Positions 3,589 through 64,000 of a stretch of DNA of 64,000 nt are shown one piece after another. Location: positions 438 to 64,437 of the forward strand of contig JAFVWN010000025.1 in NCBI GenBank assembly GCA_017501645.1. Direction: 5' to 3'. This stretch comes from Clostridia bacterium. GTDB lineage: Bacteria > Bacillota > Clostridia > Christensenellales > UBA1242. The position numbers and the translations under genes were made by a program. Every line of letters begins with the position of its first letter. Within the stretch, counting starts at the first letter, position 1. The notes below the pieces were generated by a model. It saw only the letters and a program-made list of their open reading frames with translations, ran no database searches and was not told the origin of the DNA.

Positions 3589-4521
3589 CTATTGTTTATA
3601 ACTTTTTATTTTGACATCATTAAAGAAGTAAAAAATGATTTCTTTATATGTTTTTCCTTCGTTCGCTAAGGTTATAGCATACTCTTGAGATAAACCAACA
3701 CCATGACCATATCCCCTTCCACTAAAAGTTATAGTGTTTTCATCTACAGAAATAGAGTCTATAAGGGTTGATTTTAATTTAGTACTACCTATACTTAACC
3801 TAAATTTGTTAGCTGAAATTTCTTTGCCTCCAACAATAAAAGTTTTAGCTCTTCCAGAACTATCTTTCTCTCCTATTTTAAAAGTTGACAAAGATGAAAT
3901 ACTTATTCCTAAATCTCGTAAAGTTGTTAAAATCTCGCTTTTTGTAAACGAATAATACCATTTAAAGTTTTTTGAGTTATTTGTATTTTCATTAGTTTTT
4001 ATTGGTTTTATATACTTAGGTTCTTCTAAAGAATAACCTAAACCATCAGTTGCTGTTGTTGTGTGCCCTCCACTATTCGAATGAAACCAAGCATTTATAT
4101 AATCATTGTCATAATAGACAACAATATCCTTTGTTTCCTTAACAGCTCTTCTAATATTGTCATTTATATAATCTTCATTGTATGCTTGTGCCTCATTAAT
4201 ATCTGTTGAAATGTCAGCTCCTTCATACATTGATGAATCATCTCTTAAAAATTTTAAAGTAAATGTCCTTGCAAGGACAGCTTGTGCTTTAAGGGCTTCT
4301 ATTGGAGCATTGTTACTAATTTCACCAGCGACAACACCTTCTAAATATTTTTCTAAATTAATTTGTTGAAACATTTGACTTTTTGTGTCGAAAAGATTTA
4401 TATTCATAGTCCGCGTCTTTTTTTGGCAAGATGCGAAAAGGAATATTGGAAGAATTATTATCGGCAATAATAGTAATGTTAAAATTCTATTAAATCCAAA
4501 TGTCGTATGATGTTTTTTCAT
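3589..4521 (-). CDS. spoIID: SpoIID/LytB-family protein (sporulation lytic transglycosylase type)
   Basis: Motifs EALKAQAVLARTF, SNSGGHTT and GRGYGHGVGLSQ; N-terminal hydrophobic anchor. The ORF track starts at 4539, but the ATG at 4521 is preceded by GGAG (4527-4530, 5-nt spacer), so I call 4521. Confidence 0.8.
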   Translation of the reverse strand: MKKHHTTFGFNRILTLLLLPIIILPIFLFASCQKKTRTMNINLFDTKSQMFQQINLEKYLEGVVAGEISNNAPIEALKAQAVLARTFTLKFLRDDSSMYEGADISTDINEAQAYNEDYINDNIRRAVKETKDIVVYYDNDYINAWFHSNSGGHTTTATDGLGYSLEEPKYIKPIKTNENTNNSKNFKWYYSFTKSEILTTLRDLGISISSLSTFKIGEKDSSGRAKTFIVGGKEISANKFRLSIGSTKLKSTLIDSISVDENTITFSGRGYGHGVGLSQEYAITLANEGKTYKEIIFYFFNDVKIKSYKQ

Positions 4522-4602
4522 AATATCTCCTTTAGACATAGTTTTAGTTTGTTTGAAAAATTTATACTATTTATTTAATATTTATTGATTACATAGTTTT
4601 AC

Positions 4603-44145: not shown

Positions 44146-44180
44146 TCTTGTAAAACTTGCAAAATTTGTTTAGTAATAAA

Positions 44181-44209
44181 AGAGACGGTCAAAAGCCGTC
44201 TCTTTTTTG
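44181..44209 (+). terminator. Intrinsic terminator of the giant gene
   Basis: AGAGACGG (44181-44188), loop TCAAAAG, CCGTCTCT (44196-44203), then T-run. It lies 36 nt after the stop. Confidence 0.85.
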
Positions 44210-44376
44210 TTGTAAAATTTAAGAATTTTGTTTTAAATTATAAAAACGATTGGGGAAAATTCGTTGCAAGGGTGGGGAAACAAATAAAACATAAAAAACA
44301 GTTTATTAGTTTAGTTGGTTTTTTGTTGAGAGAACTTCACTTTTTGGGTTGCAAAGGTTAAAAATCAAAAGAATAC

Positions 44377-44405
44377 TTTACATTTTATTGTGTGGGTGCT
44401 AAAAT
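44377..44405 (+). promoter_or_regulatory. Sigma-A-type promoter of leuS (extended -10)
   Basis: TTTACA (44377-44382), 17-nt spacer, TGcTAAAAT (44397-44405). Confidence 0.55.
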
Positions 44406-44456
44406 AAAAGAAAATAGTTGATAAATCTATTAATAAATACAAAGAGGCTGAAATTT

Positions 44457-48904: not shown

Positions 48905-48949
48905 TTGTGCCTCCAAGATATGGTCAAGAAAAAAGTAAGAAAATTATTC

Positions 48950-48978
48950 TTGACAAATTCGATTATCAATATTATAAT
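48950..48978 (+). promoter_or_regulatory. Consensus sigma-A promoter of the aspS-gatCAB leader
   Basis: TTGACA (48950-48955), 17-nt spacer, TATAAT (48973-48978). Confidence 0.7.
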
Positions 48979-49008
48979 ATGAATATCACGAAAAAGGAAA
49001 CAAAATCA

Positions 49009-49059
49009 ATGACATTTATTCAAATTAATAACAACAATAATAATCTTTTGAACACATAA
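49009..49059 (+). CDS. Candidate Asn-rich leader peptide MTFIQINNNNNNLLNT
   Basis: AAGGAAA (48994-49000) lies 8 nt before the ATG at 49009. The ORF has 16 codons, with six consecutive Asn codons at 49027-49044 plus one more, and ends at TAA 49057-49059. It lies between a promoter and a terminator. Confidence 0.5.
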   Translation: MTFIQINNNNNNLLNT

Positions 49060-49102
49060 AGTTATGGGTTGTTATTGTCATTGTAAAAAATAAAGTAAAT
49101 TC

Positions 49103-49141
49103 AAGAACTTTTTGGCAATCACCCAAAAAGTTCTTTTTTTT
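49103..49141 (+). terminator. Leader terminator (attenuator) upstream of aspS
   Basis: AAGAACTTTTTGG (49103-49115), loop CAATCAC, CCAAAAAGTTCTT (49123-49135): a 13-bp perfect stem followed by a T-run to 49141. It sits 40 nt upstream of the aspS ATG and inside the transcription unit. Confidence 0.8.
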
Positions 49142-49180
49142 GGAAAAAAATCAAAAAACAATTTTTAAGGAGATAAAATT

Positions 49181-58016: not shown

Positions 58017-58050
58017 ACAAAAAGCGAACAATTAAGTTCGCTTTTTATTT
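58017..58050. terminator. Bidirectional terminator between the ger operon and the convergent ATPase gene
   Basis: AAAGCGAAC (58021-58029), loop AATTAA, GTTCGCTTT (58036-58044). T-rich on both strands. Confidence 0.65.
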
Positions 58051-60761
58051 TAAATCTTGATTCTCTCAAATAACTTATAAATAATATTTATGATTGTTGG
58101 AGAAAGTATTGCAAGTATTACCATAAATAATTTTTGAGTAAGTGTTGTGATGGCTAGCCCAAAGAAACCAGGGAAGAATATAATTCCAAACAAACAACAC
58201 AAGCTCATAACTATAAACAAGATGCTTGTAAGAGCTGTCCAAGGCTTGCAAAGTCTAATAAGAAGACCAAGGCCTGTAAATGTAAGAACTATTGTTGACA
58301 TTGTGCTTAAAATGTCAGTAACTGACTTGCCAATTGTTCCCTCAGTTAAATAGATAAACAAATAGACAGCACAAATGTTAAGAATTAATGTAATTGCACC
58401 CGGCAAAGCATTTCTAATAAGGTTATAGATAAATTTACCGCTTATCGGTTTATCATTTGGCAAGAATGCCAAGAAGAATGAAGGAATACCAATTACAAAG
58501 CTTTCAAGAAGAAGCATTTGTGTTGTGGTTAGAGGATATGTCTTTCTTAAAATCAAGCAGATTATTGAGAATACAATAGTGAATATTGTTTTCATAAAGA
58601 ATAGTGCTGAAGATTTTTGGACATTGTTAATAACTCTTCGACCCTCAAGAACAGTTTCTGGCATACTTCCAAAATCACTGTTAAGAAGTACCATATGTGA
58701 AACGCTTCTTACAGCTTCACTACCGCTCGCCATAGCGATAGAGCAGTCAGCTTCTTTAAGAGCAAGAATATCGTTTACACCATCACCAGTCATTGCGACA
58801 GTGTTTCCAGCAGACTTAATTGCTTTAATTAAGATTGCTTTTTGTTCAGGTGTAACTCTTCCAAAAACGGTGTATTTGTTAGCAGCCGCAATAACTTGTT
58901 TTTCGTTTAGGCCTTCAAGGTTAATAAATGATTCTGTATTGTCAACACCAACTCTTTTAGCAATTTCTGCAACTGTTAATGGGTTGTCACCAGAAATAAT
59001 TTTAACCTTAACGCCGTTGTTTTTGAACCATTCAATAGTTGAAACAGCGTCATCACGAATGCGGTCTTCCAAAATAAGAAGAGCAATAGGTGTTCTGTTT
59101 GATGGTGGGTTGTCCTTTACAATATTTGCAGTAGAGTGGGCAAGGAGTAGAACTCTATAACCATCTTTTGCGTATTGTTCAACCATATTATTTAGTTTTG
59201 CATCATCACAATTAGGAAGTACAAATTCAGGAGCACCCATAATATAAGTTCCAGAGTTTTCAAAAGTTACAGCGCTTAGTTTTCTTGAACTTGAGAATGG
59301 GACAGTTGCTACTGGTTTTAATTCTTTATTGTAACCAAAGTAGTTGATTAAGGCTTGACTAGTTTGGTTATTGTCCCCAAGAGCAGAGAGCATTGAGCCC
59401 ATAATTCTCTTGAGTGTGTATTGAGTGTTATTAAGTTGCAAGCAGTTAAACACTTTCATTGTACCATCAGTGATAGTACCAGTTTTATCAAGACAAAGTA
59501 CATTTACACGAGCAAGCATTTCAACACAGTATAAGTCTTGAACAAGTGCTTTTCTTCTTGCAAGTTTGATTACCGATACAGTAAGTGCTACAGAGCAGAG
59601 AAGGAACATTCCTGCTGGAATCATTCCAATTATAGAGCCTGCAGTTTGAGTAATTGTGTCAACTATACTTTTTGTACTTGCATAGTTGTTTAGGTACATT
59701 AGTATTGCAATTGGAATAATGATAATACCAATTACTTTAATAATGAATTGAAGAGAAGTGAAAAGTTCGCTTTTTGGTTTCTTATATTGTTTAGCTTTAG
59801 CTGCAAGTTGTTGAACATAGTTGTTTTTACCAACCTTGTCAACTCTTGCTTTACAGTGTCCGCTTACAACGAATGAACCAGCGTAAATAGTGTCGCCAAT
59901 TTTCTTTTTTATTGGTAAGCTTTCACCGGTAAGCATACTTTCGTTAACTTCAATTGTTCCGTCAACAACGGTGCTGTCCGCAACAATTTGTTTTCCGTTT
60001 GAAAGCACAAGAATGTCATCAATAACAACCTCGCTCATTGTTATTGTTTGTTCAATTCCGTCTCGTATAACTTTAACGGCAGGAGCGGTTAAGAGCGACA
60101 GTTTTTCAATGGTTTTCTTAGCTTTAATTTCTTGGATAATACCAATAGTGGTGTTTATTATGATTATAACCATAAATAAACAATTTGACCAAGCTCCAAC
60201 ACAAATAAGACTTATGGCAATCGCAAGACATAAAATGTTGAAGAATGTTACAGTGTTTTCAAAGAAAATCTTCTTGTATGTCTTAACGCTCTCATTTGGA
60301 GTAAAGTTTGTTTGACCTTTGTCAACTCTTTCTTGAACTTGTTCGCTTGAAAGGCCAGTATTTGGGTCTGTTTTTACTCTTTTTACTCTAATAGGTTTTG
60401 CTACTTCTTGGTCTTTTTTCTTAGAACGCCCTTTTTTCTTTTTAGAGTTGTCTGCCTCTTGGTCTTTCTTTGCTTTTGAAGAAATATTTTTTGACTTGTT
60501 CTCCATAGCAACTTCAGTTTCGACAGGTTCAAGAGATAAAGCTTTGCCTTCAGTTACCGTTTTTACAGGTGCATCAGCTTTTTCTTCAGGTTTATCTTTT
60601 TCTATCCCTTTAGTTTTAGACGCTTTCGCCTTTTTCTTTTGAACAGGCTTAGTTTCTTCTATATCTTTAGGAGGATTTTCGCTTGCAGAAACCTCTTTAT
60701 CTTCAGGTTCTGCAGAAGTCATAACATCCTCTATTTTTACTTGTTTACCTTTTGGTGCCAT
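58050..60761 (-). CDS. Cation-translocating P-type ATPase (P2-like) with ~135-aa Lys/Glu-rich N-terminal extension
   Basis: DKTGTITDG phosphorylation motif, TGES, TGDGVNDILALKEADCSIAM, and about 10 TM segments. The TM4 motif is IPAGM rather than PEGL. Confidence 0.9.
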   Translation of the reverse strand: MAPKGKQVKIEDVMTSAEPEDKEVSASENPPKDIEETKPVQKKKAKASKTKGIEKDKPEEKADAPVKTVTEGKALSLEPVETEVAMENKSKNISSKAKKDQEADNSKKKKGRSKKKDQEVAKPIRVKRVKTDPNTGLSSEQVQERVDKGQTNFTPNESVKTYKKIFFENTVTFFNILCLAIAISLICVGAWSNCLFMVIIIINTTIGIIQEIKAKKTIEKLSLLTAPAVKVIRDGIEQTITMSEVVIDDILVLSNGKQIVADSTVVDGTIEVNESMLTGESLPIKKKIGDTIYAGSFVVSGHCKARVDKVGKNNYVQQLAAKAKQYKKPKSELFTSLQFIIKVIGIIIIPIAILMYLNNYASTKSIVDTITQTAGSIIGMIPAGMFLLCSVALTVSVIKLARRKALVQDLYCVEMLARVNVLCLDKTGTITDGTMKVFNCLQLNNTQYTLKRIMGSMLSALGDNNQTSQALINYFGYNKELKPVATVPFSSSRKLSAVTFENSGTYIMGAPEFVLPNCDDAKLNNMVEQYAKDGYRVLLLAHSTANIVKDNPPSNRTPIALLILEDRIRDDAVSTIEWFKNNGVKVKIISGDNPLTVAEIAKRVGVDNTESFINLEGLNEKQVIAAANKYTVFGRVTPEQKAILIKAIKSAGNTVAMTGDGVNDILALKEADCSIAMASGSEAVRSVSHMVLLNSDFGSMPETVLEGRRVINNVQKSSALFFMKTIFTIVFSIICLILRKTYPLTTTQMLLLESFVIGIPSFFLAFLPNDKPISGKFIYNLIRNALPGAITLILNICAVYLFIYLTEGTIGKSVTDILSTMSTIVLTFTGLGLLIRLCKPWTALTSILFIVMSLCCLFGIIFFPGFFGLAITTLTQKLFMVILAILSPTIINIIYKLFERIKI

Positions 60762-61011: not shown

Positions 61012-61296
61012 ATGAAGACATACGAACTTTTATATATCATTGATTCAACTGTTGCTGATGATAAAAAAGAAGAAATCATCACAAAAGTTAAAACTATTGT
61101 TGAAGAAAATGGTGGAAAAGCTGGTGAGATCGACAAGTGGGGCGTTCGTAAGTATGCATATCCTATCGATTATAAAACCGAAGGATACTATGTTCTTATG
61201 AGTTTTGAAGCACCTGCAACTGTACCACAAATGCTTGAAAGTCAAATGTTAATCATGGAAGGCGTTGTTCGTCACATGGTTACATTTAAGAACTAA
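61012..61296 (+). CDS. rpsF: 30S ribosomal protein S6
   Basis: MKTYELLYIID...WGVRKYAYPI..EGYYVLM. SD AAGGAGG upstream. Confidence 0.95.
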   Translation: MKTYELLYIIDSTVADDKKEEIITKVKTIVEENGGKAGEIDKWGVRKYAYPIDYKTEGYYVLMSFEAPATVPQMLESQMLIMEGVVRHMVTFKN

Positions 61297-61326: not shown

Positions 61327-61743
61327 ATGAATAAAGTTATTTTAATTGGCAATCTTGCTAAAGACCCTGAACTTACAACAACTAACAATGGTGTTTCTTT
61401 ATGTAAATTTACTATTGCTGTTCCTCGTCGTTTCGCTGGTAATGATGGTGAAAGAGAAGCCGATTTCCTTCCAGTTATCGTGTGGAGAGGTCAAGCAGAC
61501 AACTGTTATAAATACTTGAAGAAAGGTAGCAAAGCTGCTATTTCTGGTAGTGTTCAAACAAGATCTTACGAAAGTACAGACGGGCAAAGAAGATATATCA
61601 CTGAAATTGTTGCTGATGAAGTTGAGTTTTTAAGCACTAAAAATGGCGGAGATGACGAAGCTTTTGAAAAGCCTATTAATGAGGGCAAGAAAGATGTCGT
61701 TTCTAAGTTTGAGCCTATTGATGATGACAATCTTCCATTCTAA
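61327..61743 (+). CDS. ssb: Single-stranded DNA-binding protein
   Basis: [18 protein letters not shown] fold and an acidic tail ending DDDNLPF. Confidence 0.95.
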
Positions 61744-61769: not shown

Positions 61770-62045
61770 ATGAAAAAGCAAGTTAAGAATAACAATAATG
61801 CTTCTTATGATGATAAAAACCCAAAGAAAGTTAGAAAGAGCCCAAAGAAAGTTTGTGCTTTTTGTAATGAAAAGATTGAAGCTATCGATTACAAAGATAC
61901 AGCTCGTCTTAAAAAATATATGACAGAAAAGGGTAAAATCATCCCAAGAAGAACTACTGGTGTTTGTGCTAAGCACCAAAGAGAGCTTACAAATGCTATA
62001 AAGAGAGCTAGAGTTATGGCTCTTCTTCCATACAAAAACAACTAG
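61770..62045 (+). CDS. rpsR: 30S ribosomal protein S18
   Basis: VCAFC..IDYKD...[32 protein letters not shown]. Confidence 0.95.
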
Positions 62046-62083
62046 AGGGCGAATTTCACCCATCTAACATTGTTAACAAAAAC

Positions 62084-62133
62084 AATCCCAAACAGTTATT
62101 TATGTCTAATAAACGCCTGCTTGGGATTTTTTT
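62084..62133 (+). terminator. Probable rpsR terminator (large-loop hairpin plus T-run)
   Basis: AATCCCAA (62084-62091) pairs with TTGGGATT (62121-62128), with 3 more inner pairs, followed by a T-run to 62133. Confidence 0.5.
62090..62114 (+). repeat. 25-nt perfect direct repeat, copy 1
   Basis: AAACAGTTATTTATGTCTAATAAAC, identical to 62194-62218. Confidence 0.85.
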
Positions 62134-62161
62134 GTTGCCTCGTTATATGGGCAAACTTCGC

Positions 62162-62197
62162 CCTCTAGTACTATAGATGTGTTGGAGGGAACGAAAC
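62162..62197 (+). repeat. Direct repeat unit A (14-nt identical core plus related G-rich tail)
   Basis: CCTCTAGTACTATA (62162-62175) followed by GATGTGTTGGAGGGAACGAAAC. Confidence 0.75.
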
Positions 62198-62218
62198 AGT
62201 TATTTATGTCTAATAAAC
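62194..62218 (+). repeat. 25-nt perfect direct repeat, copy 2
   Basis: AAACAGTTATTTATGTCTAATAAAC, identical to 62090-62114. Confidence 0.85.
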
Positions 62219-62503
62219 TTGAGCATTAATTTGGATATAGGTTTCTTCTTAAAATCTTTATCTAAAAATGAAGAAGAGTTGTTGTAAAAATTGGTTAAGA
62301 GCAAACTGGTAGCAGATTGGGAATTATTTTAGATTCAAAAGGCGAAAACAAGGTTCTTCGTAGTATCTAGATGTTACACGAAAGGTTCTTGATTTGCGAC
62401 TTTTGGGCTAAAAGAAACCCAAGGTGCGTGTTATAGTCCGCCGGTTCGGTAGAGAGGCGGAATTAGTTTACCCGCCGAGCCTTGAGCAAAAACTAAACTA
62501 TGT

Positions 62504-62545
62504 CCTCTAGTACTATAATAGGTTGGGGAGAGGAAACGCAAACTC
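62504..62545 (+). repeat. Direct repeat unit B (14-nt identical core plus related G-rich tail)
   Basis: CCTCTAGTACTATA (62504-62517) followed by ATAGGTTGGGGAGAGGAAACGCAAAC. Confidence 0.75.
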
Positions 62546-62584
62546 GACCCTTTAGTGTGAGAGTTTGGTAATAGACATATAAAA

Positions 62585-62614
62585 AACACAGGATAATAAG
62601 TCTTGTGTTTTTTT
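62585..62614 (+). terminator. Intrinsic terminator inside the ORF-free region (end of an unannotated transcript?)
   Basis: AACACAGG (62585-62592) pairs with CTTGTGTT (62602-62609) with one G-U pair and a 9-nt loop, followed by a T-run to 62614. Confidence 0.6.
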
Positions 62615-62680
62615 GTGGCACAATAGTGTTAAAAAGAGGTTTAAAAAGGTGAAAAAAATTAAAACAACCCTTGTTTTTGT

Positions 62681-62709
62681 TTGGAGATTTTAAAAATATT
62701 GTATATAAT
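62681..62709 (+). promoter_or_regulatory. Possible promoter of the last surface-protein gene
   Basis: TTGGAG (62681-62686), 17-nt spacer, TATAAT (62704-62709). Confidence 0.4.
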
Positions 62710-62737
62710 AATAAGTGTGAAGGTATAAACTAAAGAG

Positions 62738-62851
62738 AAGGGGCTGAGAGCTTTTATAATCTCCCCCTTTGGTGCAAGCACCACCTTTCCCCCGTCCGGA
62801 GGAACCAAGAAAAATGGATTTTTTATTTTTTTTGGTTACGGAGTAAGGGGG
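62738..62851 (+). promoter_or_regulatory. Structured 5' leader with three consecutive hairpins built on G-runs and C-runs
   Basis: Hairpin A is 62738-62769 (AAGGGG..GAGA / TCTC CCCCTT). Hairpin B is 62770-62783 (TGGTG CAAG CACCA). Hairpin C is 62789-62851 (CCCCC, TCCG, AACCAA / TTGGTT, CGGA, GGGGG) and is followed by CTTGTTTTG. Confidence 0.35.
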
Positions 62852-62885
62852 CTTGTTTTGTAGAGAGATAAAAGAGGAGAAAGGA

Positions 62886-64000
62886 ATGAAAAAACTAAAA
62901 GCAATTTTAAGTTTTGTATTTGCTCTAGGTATAATATGTCTAGGCTTTTCTTTTGCATTTAATTTTGATACTAAAATTACTGCAAGTGCATTATCGCAAA
63001 CAGAAATTGTTGAAAATATTATGAATGGTGAGTGCGTAGAAAAAGGCGGTGCAATCTATTTATCTGCTGGCTCAACCTATAATATGAGTGGTGGAGAGAT
63101 AAGTGGACACTTTGCAGAAAAAGGCGGAGCTTTATATATAAGTGATGGTGCAGTATTTACAATGACAGGCGGAACAATCACTGGCAACTATGCAAAATAT
63201 GGCGGAGCAATCTATGTTGCAAATGGTGGTGAATGTTATATCAACGGAGGAACAATTACTGGAAACTATGGAATGAATGCCCCGGCAATTTATGTTGAAA
63301 CTGGTGGATTATTACAAGTAAGTGACGAAGCCCTAGTTGATGGAAATATCTTTTTAGAAAAGACAACACCAATTAATGTTTATGTTGACGGAACACTTGC
63401 AAAAACAATCAATGCTGGTGGTGAAAGTTATACTCTAAAAGAGGCAGATATGCCACTTGATTATGAACATTGTTGTGGATATTTTTTAGATAGTGAACTT
63501 AGAACAACAATAAAGAATGATACAATAGATTTAACCTCCGTAGGAGAAGAGATAACCTTTACACCAAGAACAGCAACGGCAGGCAGTGAAGGTATAAATA
63601 TTTATACAAGAACAGCAAATCCGGAAAGCGATTTTTCTTTTACTTATGATTCATCTACTCAAACATATAAAATAGGATTATCAAACAAGGATGTGGAAGG
63701 TATTGTTGTATTACCAAAAGAATATGATAATGTGCAGACTAGCATTGATTATACCAATCAGGGAATCTCTCTCTTTGAATTTAATAATGAGGTAAATTTA
63801 TGTTTACAGTCTGGAGTTTTAACAATTCCCGAATGTGCATTTTTTTATGTATACAATCTCAAAAGTATTACAATTCCAGACAGTGTCACAAGTATAGGGT
63901 ATGGAGCATTCGGTGGTTGCAATGGCTTAACAAGTGTAATAATACCGGATGGTGTAACAAGTATAGGGGATTTTGCTTTTCAGTCTTGCACTGGGTTAAC
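62886..64000 (+). CDS. Surface protein with signal peptide, PMP-like GGAIY beta-helix repeats and BspA-type LRR; 3' end beyond the window
   Basis: The ATG at 62886 follows the SD GAGGAG. Product starts MKKLKAILSFVFALGIICLGFSFA, then GGAIYLSAG..MSGGEISGHFAEKGGALYIS..MTGGTITGNYAKYGGAIYVANGG, then IPECAFFYVYNLKSITIPDSVTSIGYGAFGGCNGLTSVIIPDGVTSIGDFAFQSC. It is missing from the ORF track because it has no stop in the window. Confidence 0.85.
   Translation, partial: MKKLKAILSFVFALGIICLGFSFAFNFDTKITASALSQTEIVENIMNGECVEKGGAIYLSAGSTYNMSGGEISGHFAEKGGALYISDGAVFTMTGGTITGNYAKYGGAIYVANGGECYINGGTITGNYGMNAPAIYVETGGLLQVSDEALVDGNIFLEKTTPINVYVDGTLAKTINAGGESYTLKEADMPLDYEHCCGYFLDSELRTTIKNDTIDLTSVGEEITFTPRTATAGSEGINIYTRTANPESDFSFTYDSSTQTYKIGLSNKDVEGIVVLPKEYDNVQTSIDYTNQGISLFEFNNEVNLCLQSGVLTIPECAFFYVYNLKSITIPDSVTSIGYGAFGGCNGLTSVIIPDGVTSIGDFAFQSCTGL

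Follow-up and report, generated by a model that had tools for sequence, protein, structure and literature searches.

In the window analyzed here, which is the whole 64-kb stretch of Clostridia DNA, the sequence downstream of the ribosomal protein gene rpsR is best explained as a lineage-specific extended terminator, or 3' untranslated region (3'UTR) hairpin, of the rpsF-ssb-rpsR operon, together with an unstable tandem array derived from this hairpin (H). We hold this explanation with moderate confidence. What the data demonstrate is the anatomy of H, its conservation and covariation, the polymorphism between strains, the origin of the array units from H, and, within the sequences available, confinement to one locus. 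The host clade is a small group of uncultured ruminant-gut Clostridia.

A preliminary description of the window had drawn attention to the region after rpsR as GC-rich, bounded by repeats, and free of open reading frames (ORFs), and had proposed an unannotated RNA or the scar of a small element. Its observation is confirmed and its interpretation is supported in part. No ORF of at least 60 amino acids (aa) is present, the longest on either strand of 62046-62885 being 52 aa. The local rise in GC content is also real (0.45-0.49 at 62350-62550, against 0.23-0.37 in neighboring non-coding windows and up to about 0.43 in adjacent coding sequence). The description overlooked the main structure, which is a conserved, covarying 129-nt hairpin taking in the rpsR terminator and stop codon.

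The hairpin at the rpsR stop codon

Hairpin H spans 62041-62169 on the + strand and is built from a foot stem, a middle stem, an inner terminator stem, and an AU apex. The foot is a 13-bp stem (62041-62053 / 62157-62169) formed by the perfect inverted repeat CTAGAGGGCGAA/TTCGCCCTCTAG, and it extends to 28-nt arms that are 86% complementary. This repeat had previously been reported as a perfect 12-bp inverted repeat overlapping the rpsR stop codon and enclosing the rpsR terminator; perfection, overlap, and enclosure all stand, but the repeat is really 13 nt long and is the foot of a far larger hairpin. A second pair of arms, 25 nt each, is nested inside H (62079-62103 / 62109-62133). The folding free energy (dG) of H is -56.2 kcal/mol with z = -9.9, and 0 of 200 shuffles were as good. 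Its 5' edge falls within the last rpsR codon, two bases ahead of the stop codon TAG (62043-62045). The stop and the last sense codon both lie within the foot, where they pair with sequence about 115 nt downstream.

Within H lies terminator T1 (62075-62133, +), which comprises an A-tract, a stem, and a U-run at 62127-62133. It is a predicted intrinsic terminator, in that a stable GC-containing hairpin with a U-run closes the transcription unit, and could in principle act in either direction. The outer arms on the right-hand side of H (62134-62169) sit 3' of the T1 U-run. The apex block (62093-62119, +) reads CAG-TTA-TTTAT-GTCTA-ATAAA-CGC-CTG, and its columns are invariant or nearly so in four lineages.

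These lineages come from a comparison set of 58 related metagenome loci (labeled L001-L058), within which H was compared across four independent lineages only: the window, L003, L009, and L057. The hairpin is 129 nt long in the first three and 128 nt in L057. Its ungapped identity to the window is 43% in L003 and 60% in L009; the rpsR DNA of the H lineages is 81-93% identical. The most distant relative, L057/L058 (rpsR DNA 80.8% and protein 91% identical), possesses a near-perfect H of 128 nt with dG -69 and z = -11, which was unexpected at such a distance. The L009 hairpin folds with z = -4.7.

Pairing is maintained despite this divergence. In a five-sequence alignment, 87.4% of cells were paired, compared with 42-48% when the partners were slid by 1-3 columns. 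Two-sided changes were found in 19 pairs versus 5-7 in the slid controls, and 0 of 500 shuffles reached the observed values. With L057 added as a sixth sequence, compensatory double changes were present in 22 of 49 H pairs. For example, the last codon and stop are GAT TAG in L057 versus AAC TAG, the right foot is CTAAT versus CTAGT, and pair 7-134 is kept through a change from C-G to U-A. Likewise, all four differences between the H of the window and that of L008 (rpsR 99.3% identical) keep or better the pairing, one of them being a C-G to A-U double change. Blocks of sequence are also conserved in all four lineages, namely TAGAGKGCGAAYTTY in the left foot, CAGTYATTTATG(Y)NAATAAA..CCTG in the apex, and AAAYTTCGCCCTCTAR in the right foot. 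Judged by compensatory pairing across diverged sequences, H appears to be a structured cis-acting RNA or DNA element.

Strain variation downstream of the hairpin

An exact-protein look-up of S18 retrieved contigs that encode an identical S18 but have five different downstream forms. Four independent assemblies (L001, L002, L004, L007) have the window form and are 99.5-100% identical to it over the stretch covered. A contig of the same species, L005, is 99.3% identical upstream and 96.7% downstream, and lacks 342 bp; its junction reads ...CGCCCTCTAGTACTATA|ATAGGTTGGGGAGAGG... or, equivalently, ...CCTCTAGTACTATA|ATAGGTTGGGG... At the same junction, L008 has four extra units of 117, 104, 117, and 104 nt, arranged as Y-X-Y-X in place of the 342-bp unit. 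As expected of a variable number tandem repeat (VNTR), the extra units beyond H number 0 in L005, 1 (342 bp) in the window, and 4 in L008, and the flanks of the array are 93-99% identical across strains. The preliminary description had suggested that the ~340 bp between two copies of CCTCTAGTACTATA form an insertion or duplication unit, and had advised seeking an empty site among relatives. The unit is real, with evidence of the empty-site type: L005 cleanly lacks exactly this 342-bp piece, and L008 has another array there.

In the window, the 342-bp unit occupies 62176-62517 (+), its edges being slidable within a 14-23-nt repeat. It is also present in L001, L002, L004, and, up to the contig end at window position 62346, in L007. 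The 14-nt direct repeat CCTCTAGTACTATA is exact at 62162-62175 and 62504-62517 and extends to 23 nt with 87% identity; on its own, the 14-mer is only weakly beyond chance, as 6 of 100 shuffles gave at least 2 matches (2 mismatches allowed). The 25-nt direct repeat is likewise exact, as previously described, at 62090-62114 and 62194-62218, and is expected by chance 0.00 times. The first junction repeat copy, AAACTTCGCCCTCTAGTACTATA (62153-62175, +), consists of the right foot of H plus an ACTATA spacer, and a junction of this form closes every unit of the L008 array.

The L008 units reveal the relationship between the array and H. By Tandem Repeats Finder, the array has a period of 221 repeated 2.5 times (96% match) and also a period of 104 repeated 3.6 times (66% match). 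All units end in AAACTnnGCCCTCTAGTACTATA and start with a G-rich head, TTGGAGAGAAC or TTGGGGAGAGG. The X units are the right two-thirds of H, with 100% identity over 86 nt, preceded by a head, and this array-unit head is either GGAGGGAACGAA or GGAGAGAAC, similar to the left foot AGAGGGCGAA. In addition to the H-like terminator flank TTTTTTTGTTGCCT and foot, the Y units contain the motif CYGCCGAGCC-N5-CAAAA-N3-AAACT. Features common to the units are GGAGGG-like heads, CCCTCTAGT / AAACTnnGnCCTCTAGT feet, and the terminator flank TTTTTTTGTTGCC, with ACTATA between units.

The window unit is a mosaic of an X-type head, a 222-nt private segment, and a Y-type 3' end. The X-type head (62176-62218, +) comprises the left-foot copy GGAGGGAACGAA and, at 62194-62218, the second 25-nt repeat; window 62160-62218, which contains it, is 91.5% identical to the L008 X units. 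This head can pair with the preceding right foot in a junction hairpin (62157-62195, dG -16.2, z = -3.0). Because the right foot of one unit can pair with the head of the next, the array can fold in two registers. The Y-type 3' end (62441-62517, +) contains the GCCGAGCC...CAAAA...AAACT motif (62474-62499), which recurs in the right arm of the L003 hairpin and in the Y units of L008, as well as the second junction repeat copy (62495-62517).

The private segment (62219-62440, +) is found in window-type strains only and has no match in L003, L008, L009, or the rest of the window. It folds with z = -3.1 on the + strand and -3.9 on the - strand. An imperfect 89-nt palindrome centered on TCTAGA (62326-62414) gives z = -4.0 (+) and -3.7 (-), and its left arm has GGCGAA, which resembles the H foot. 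Two GC hairpins in the unit, TTGGG-N10-CCCAA (62403-62422) and CCGCC-N13-GGCGG (62438-62460), are present where the preliminary description had placed them, but neither is significant alone; they were rejected as an independent domain on the folding of 62430-62490 (z = -0.9).

Beyond the unit lies a tail (62518-62580, +) whose G-rich head is GGTTGGGGAGAGG and whose foot, CCCTTTAGTG, is degenerate. The tail is 97% identical in L008 and, from its sequence, looks like a decayed unit. Terminator T2 follows (62581-62614, +), with its stem at 62581-62593 / 62601-62613 and a U-run at 62608-62614. This second terminator had also been reported, and it is real: it folds with dG -17.6 and z = -6.5, and its hairpin and U-run make it a predicted intrinsic terminator. 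T2 is kept in L003 (97% over 33 nt) and resembles the sole rpsR terminator of L050, a relative that lacks H.

Among the other relatives, L003 and L009 (rpsR DNA 93% identical) each have a single H followed by T2. L006 encodes an identical S18 protein from rpsR DNA that is 90.6% identical, and has a plain terminator and then dnaB. It clusters with L009 on the rpsR DNA tree yet is without H and without the leucine-rich repeat (LRR) gene found downstream in the window, a pattern suggesting that the entire rpsR-dnaB spacer was recently lost or replaced. The further S18 relatives examined at 90-95% identity (L016-L056) all have a simple terminator 3' of rpsR, and T1-like rpsR terminators occur in the H-less L048, L054, L055, and L041. 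L041-43 retain a T1-like terminator and the beginning of the left foot (CTAGAGAGCAAA) and lack the right arm. Where H is present among relatives, it is always at the same site. L008 and L009 come from one metagenome sample (ERZ27317464), which contains two H lineages with 93% rpsR DNA identity. The L003 contig ends in a poly-G run (4520-4534), probably a sequencing or assembly artefact, and covers nothing beyond T2.

Origin, function, and competing explanations

Under the favored explanation, a plain rpsR terminator would have gained, as a reverse complement, a second copy of the flank upstream of it, the final five rpsR bases included. This type of event would be a product of replication template switching (PMC8794818), a process that can both create and repair hairpin stems (PMC8794818). 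Since then, selection, template-switch 'palindrome correction', or the two together may have preserved the pairing of the long hairpin. In one species, H units would then have been duplicated, partly deleted, and recombined to yield a strain-variable array ahead of T2. The 342-bp piece would represent an allele of the array that arose or disappeared when the 14-23-nt junction repeats recombined or slipped during replication, and the array itself would mainly be a by-product of the instability of repeated-hairpin DNA. Since sequence of the X type and of the Y type is found together in L008, an array was probably already in place in the ancestor from which the window, L005, and L008 descend. The L005 form would then more likely reflect a deletion between junction repeats than a site that was never occupied.

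With respect to function, we infer that H acts in cis, in termination in both directions and in 3'-end protection of read-through RNA. Since the stop codon sits in a 13-bp GC-rich stem, H may possibly also slow the termination of S18 translation. A passage of PMC12306157 cites work in which E. coli hairpins of the repetitive extragenic palindrome (REP) type, located near stop codons, can stall ribosomes. A more far-reaching reading, which we regard as quite unlikely, would make H a cis-regulatory element of a kind not described before, with the rpsR stop as its anchor. In that case, the terminating ribosome would melt the 13-bp foot, either coupling S18 translation to read-through or mRNA decay or freeing the foot for a specific protein recognizing the conserved blocks of apex and foot; the extra units would be alternative pairing partners that provide strain-specific tuning.

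Several points weigh against the extended-terminator explanation. If T1 terminates efficiently, the outer right arm (62134-62169) is untranscribed, and the conserved outer stems would act only in read-through RNA or as DNA. Counts of G-U versus A-C pairs favor neither strand; such counts do not distinguish RNA from DNA, or one strand from the other, and template switching can mimic selection in the covariation of H. Only four lineages stand behind the conservation of H, and in one of them, L003, the hairpin is 69% paired and has no significant fold (z = -0.8). H is patchy on the rpsR tree, requiring about four losses, or transfer. The conservation of the apex and foot blocks at 81% rpsR DNA identity exceeds the need of a plain terminator and hints at a specific binding partner. 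In addition, the explanation does not account for the 222-nt segment (62219-62440) of window-type strains.

The locus was also searched for known RNAs and small proteins. In agreement with the preliminary description, no RNA family was recognized: Rfam 15 gave 0 matches over the whole window at the gathering threshold and none for the L005, L008, L009, and L057 loci, and at E<=10 the matches to 61900-63000 were noise only (best 27.7 bits, cut-off 195). No tRNA or tmRNA was detected by ARAGORN. A T-box was rejected for AAUUAGUUUACCCGCCG, which is loosely like a T-box sequence, on the grounds of no Rfam match and no downstream aminoacyl-tRNA synthetase (aaRS) gene. H contains small frames of 24 aa (MSNKRLLGIFLLPRYMGKLRPLVL, MSNK..., 62102-62176) and 32 aa (...LCLINACLGFFCCLVIWANFAL, ...ANFAL, 62070-62168), but a small protein or type I toxin was rejected because both are broken in L009 and L003. 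The 32-aa frame and a 21-aa frame of L057 share the ending ANFAL*. Differences between the window and L057 frames fall at codon positions 1:2:3 in the ratio 5:3:6 (hand count), and the ANFAL similarity appears to reflect nucleotide conservation, not coding. None of the small ORFs inside H and the units is conserved, and no conserved ORF runs across the apex block.

It is unlikely that the unit and/or the tail encode independent trans-acting small RNAs (sRNAs) ending at T2, with the variable units as paralogous sRNA genes. The local GC rise and the strong predicted terminator T2 at the 3' end are consistent with such genes, as are the folding of 62170-62620, which is better on the + strand (z = -4.4) than on the - strand (z = -3.1), and a perfect TATAAT (62514-62519) directly 5' of the G-rich tail. 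However, no sigma-70-like promoter was found on the + strand of 62046-62620, where the preliminary description had also found none convincing. The TATAAT has neither a -35 element nor a TG extension, reads TATAAC or TATAGA at other junctions, and is missing in L003, L009, and L057; as it is not conserved, it was rejected as a promoter. No Rfam family matches, and the available copies of the unit offer no sequence variation in which covariation could show. Furthermore, the middle segment (62219-62440) is missing from the same-species L005 and L008 and is therefore dispensable.

We consider it improbable that a mobile or site-specific element left H and the units behind, be it a miniature inverted-repeat transposable element (MITE) with a CTAG duplication, cassettes of an integrase or single-stranded DNA recombinase, or att scars at the rpsR 3' end. 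Such an origin would suit the presence/absence difference bounded by direct repeats, the cassette-like alternative contents at one junction, the patchy occurrence of H always at the same site, and the terminal inverted repeats flanked by CTAG. These flanks are nonetheless ambiguous in the window (CTAG/CTAG), since CTAG is palindromic. In L057 they are TTAG/CTAA, which are reverse complements, and the CTAG is therefore stem and not a target-site duplication. Moreover, L041 has the beginning of a left foot and no right arm, so that the left arm looks like native 3'UTR. An IS5-like MITE with CTAG duplication was rejected on the basis of the L057 flanks and the L041 remnant; the foot GTGCGAAC/GGGCGAA may resemble the IS5 inverted repeat GGTGCGAA, a likeness that would favor such an origin. 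The units are instead copies of H itself, as local duplication predicts.

Further searches bear on the MITE-like scar proposed earlier, which had been expected to reveal itself through multiple copies. Blastn-short of the whole region against the 64-kb window matched only the locus itself, and an inverted-repeat scan likewise found no second copy of any module there. A covariance model of H (R1), run on the window with filters off, recovered only H (164.7 bits on +, 78.2 bits on -; next 15 bits). The pattern TTTATGT..AATAAA..CCTCTAGT had 5 matches in GTDB genomes, presumed to be chance, although this pattern would miss L057-type variants; the one match inspected, L015, lies inside a MATE-family gene and the other four are in unrelated taxa. 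The GCCGAGCC motif had 3 matches in JGI metagenomes, none in an rpsR context, which are apparently coding and were taken as chance. IMG/VR pattern scans and blastn against phage and plasmid collections returned nothing real. No transposase, integrase, reverse transcriptase, or HUH/Y1 gene was found among the window ORFs of at least 120 aa that were screened, all of which are housekeeping or surface-protein genes; in this screen, an 11,019-aa ORF was scanned at its two ends only, the LRR gene over its first 371 aa only, and the ATPase at 58050-60761 was labeled solely via the annotation from the exact-S18 look-up.

Two site-specific recombination systems merit comparison. Integron attC sites are imperfect palindromes of 60-140 nt with R'/R'' cores GTTRRRY/RYYYAAC and conserved ends, in which structure is conserved over sequence. 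H is like an attC site or cassette in being an imperfect palindrome with conserved ends, whose units are joined at a fixed junction. However, attC was rejected, because ATCTAAC fits the R'' consensus while its partner GTTATAT fails R', L008 has AAA/TTT replacing AAC/GTT, no integrase (intI) or attI was found in the window, and the units are non-coding copies of each other. The apex TTATGTCTAAT is similar to the XerD arm of dif; a dif/Xer site was rejected given that there is no XerC arm or dyad and that the locus is in the rpsR-dnaB region.

That H functions as folded DNA (a cruciform or single-strand hairpin), for example as a protein-binding or replication/recombination site between ssb-rpsR and dnaB, seems decidedly improbable. 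It would explain why outer stems beyond the T1 U-run still covary, why G-U versus A-C pairs show no strand bias, and why the model scores both strands, and it would be in line with the conserved apex and foot blocks. Nevertheless, there is no candidate protein and no match to a known site (no recognizable XerC arm, parS, or DnaA boxes), L003 is without a strong hairpin, and close relative species manage without H. We regard assembly artefacts as a highly improbable source of the repeats and indel. Repeat arrays are prone to mis-assembly and L008 is a single 1.5-kb contig, but the full window-form unit is found in L001, L002, and L004, three independent assemblies that differ in sample and assembler, and up to 62346 in L007. 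In addition, two further contigs share the neighboring genes of L005 (judged by gene neighbors alone), and H recurs in four diverged lineages.

If the extended-terminator explanation is true, the locus would be a natural case in which a plain terminator lengthened into a covarying palindrome extending into the upstream ORF and subsequently gave rise to an unstable tandem array. It would be useful for understanding hairpin evolution by template switching, and strains of an uncultured rumen Clostridia lineage could be typed by the array. The finding is local in reach and opens no new field. On present evidence, it is neither a known RNA gene nor a jumping element. The conserved blocks and the placement of the stop codon in a 13-bp stem would matter more if they regulate S18 output.

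Related repeats and the surrounding genes

H resembles several known classes of non-coding repeats. Mycobacterial interspersed repetitive units (MIRUs), the STAR repeats of S. aureus, and the BOX elements of pneumococci are multi-locus, non-coding, modular repeats, and the internal modules of BOX elements are repeated a variable number of times and form stable hairpins. The present array shares with these VNTR-type repeats its non-coding modules of ~50-120 nt and its strain-variable copy number and make-up. It differs in that it is seen at one locus only and in that its units derive from a neighboring terminator hairpin.

Proteobacterial REPs, their inverted pairs (REPINs), and bacterial interspersed mosaic elements (BIMEs) are, like H, extragenic imperfect palindromes just 3' of stop codons (PMC3116915, PMC3733652, PMC12306157). 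REPIN unit pairs, when inverted, make a larger hairpin, and BIMEs form mosaic tandem arrays that alternate two unit types, comparable to the X and Y units of L008. The roles proposed for REPs are also similar, namely in terminating transcription, protecting mRNA 3' ends, and stalling ribosomes at the stop codon. However, REPs are 20-40 nt long, occur in tens to hundreds of dispersed copies, have a cognate REP-associated tyrosine transposase (RAYT), and bear a GTAG/CGTC tag. In the present case, there is a single locus in the window, units are 104-342 nt long, the ends are CTAGAG rather than the tag, no RAYT is found among the screened ORFs, and the foot pairs with the coding end of one gene.

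Intrinsic terminators and 3'UTR stabilizers share with the H apex and T2 a GC stem and U-run at an operon end, and matching hairpins are the only rpsR terminators in relatives. H differs from these by a conserved, covarying lower stem of ~35 bp, which reaches into the ORF and is partly 3' of the U-run, and by a conserved AU-rich apex. Quasi-palindrome template-switch mutation (PMC8794818) explains how a reverse-complement copy of the flank, including the last 5 nt of rpsR, could have arisen in a single step, as well as double 'compensatory' changes between near-identical strains; it is, however, a mutational mechanism and no functional class, and leaves the conserved apex and foot blocks unexplained. 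The locus is a new, lineage-restricted case of extragenic palindrome/terminator repeats with VNTR behavior.

The operon itself is on the + strand, with rpsF at 61012-61296, ssb at 61327-61743, and rpsR, the last gene (encoding S18), at 61770-62045 in the list of ORFs. These names rest on Pfam S6, SSB, and S18 matches on L001, whose locus is identical to the window. The next gene 3' of rpsR encodes a BspA-type LRR protein with its ATG at 62886. Its leader (62640-62885) contains the best sigma-70-like site of the area (62682-62709, 10/12). This leader is GC-rich, and CCCCCGUCCGG...ACGGAGUAAGGGGG encloses an all-AU hairpin and U-run in an attenuator-like arrangement (z = -2.25). The promoter block is kept in the H-less L036, and changes in L005 break the outer stem of the leader.

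Elsewhere in the window, no T-box or S6:S18 leader was detected by Rfam, for example at 44146-44417 (5' of leuS) or 48917-49180 (5' of the Asp/Asn-tRNA synthetase gene). The 64-kb window of this spore-forming Clostridia genome contains two aaRS genes, gatA/gatB, and rpsF-ssb-rpsR, yet has no Rfam match at the gathering score. An uninterrupted ORF of 11,019 aa (11086-44145, +) encodes a giant surface protein, with BspA-type LRR_5, LRR_8, and Listeria-Bacteroides repeats in its N-terminal 1,500 aa and Flg_new and Flg_new_2 repeats in its C-terminal 1,500 aa.

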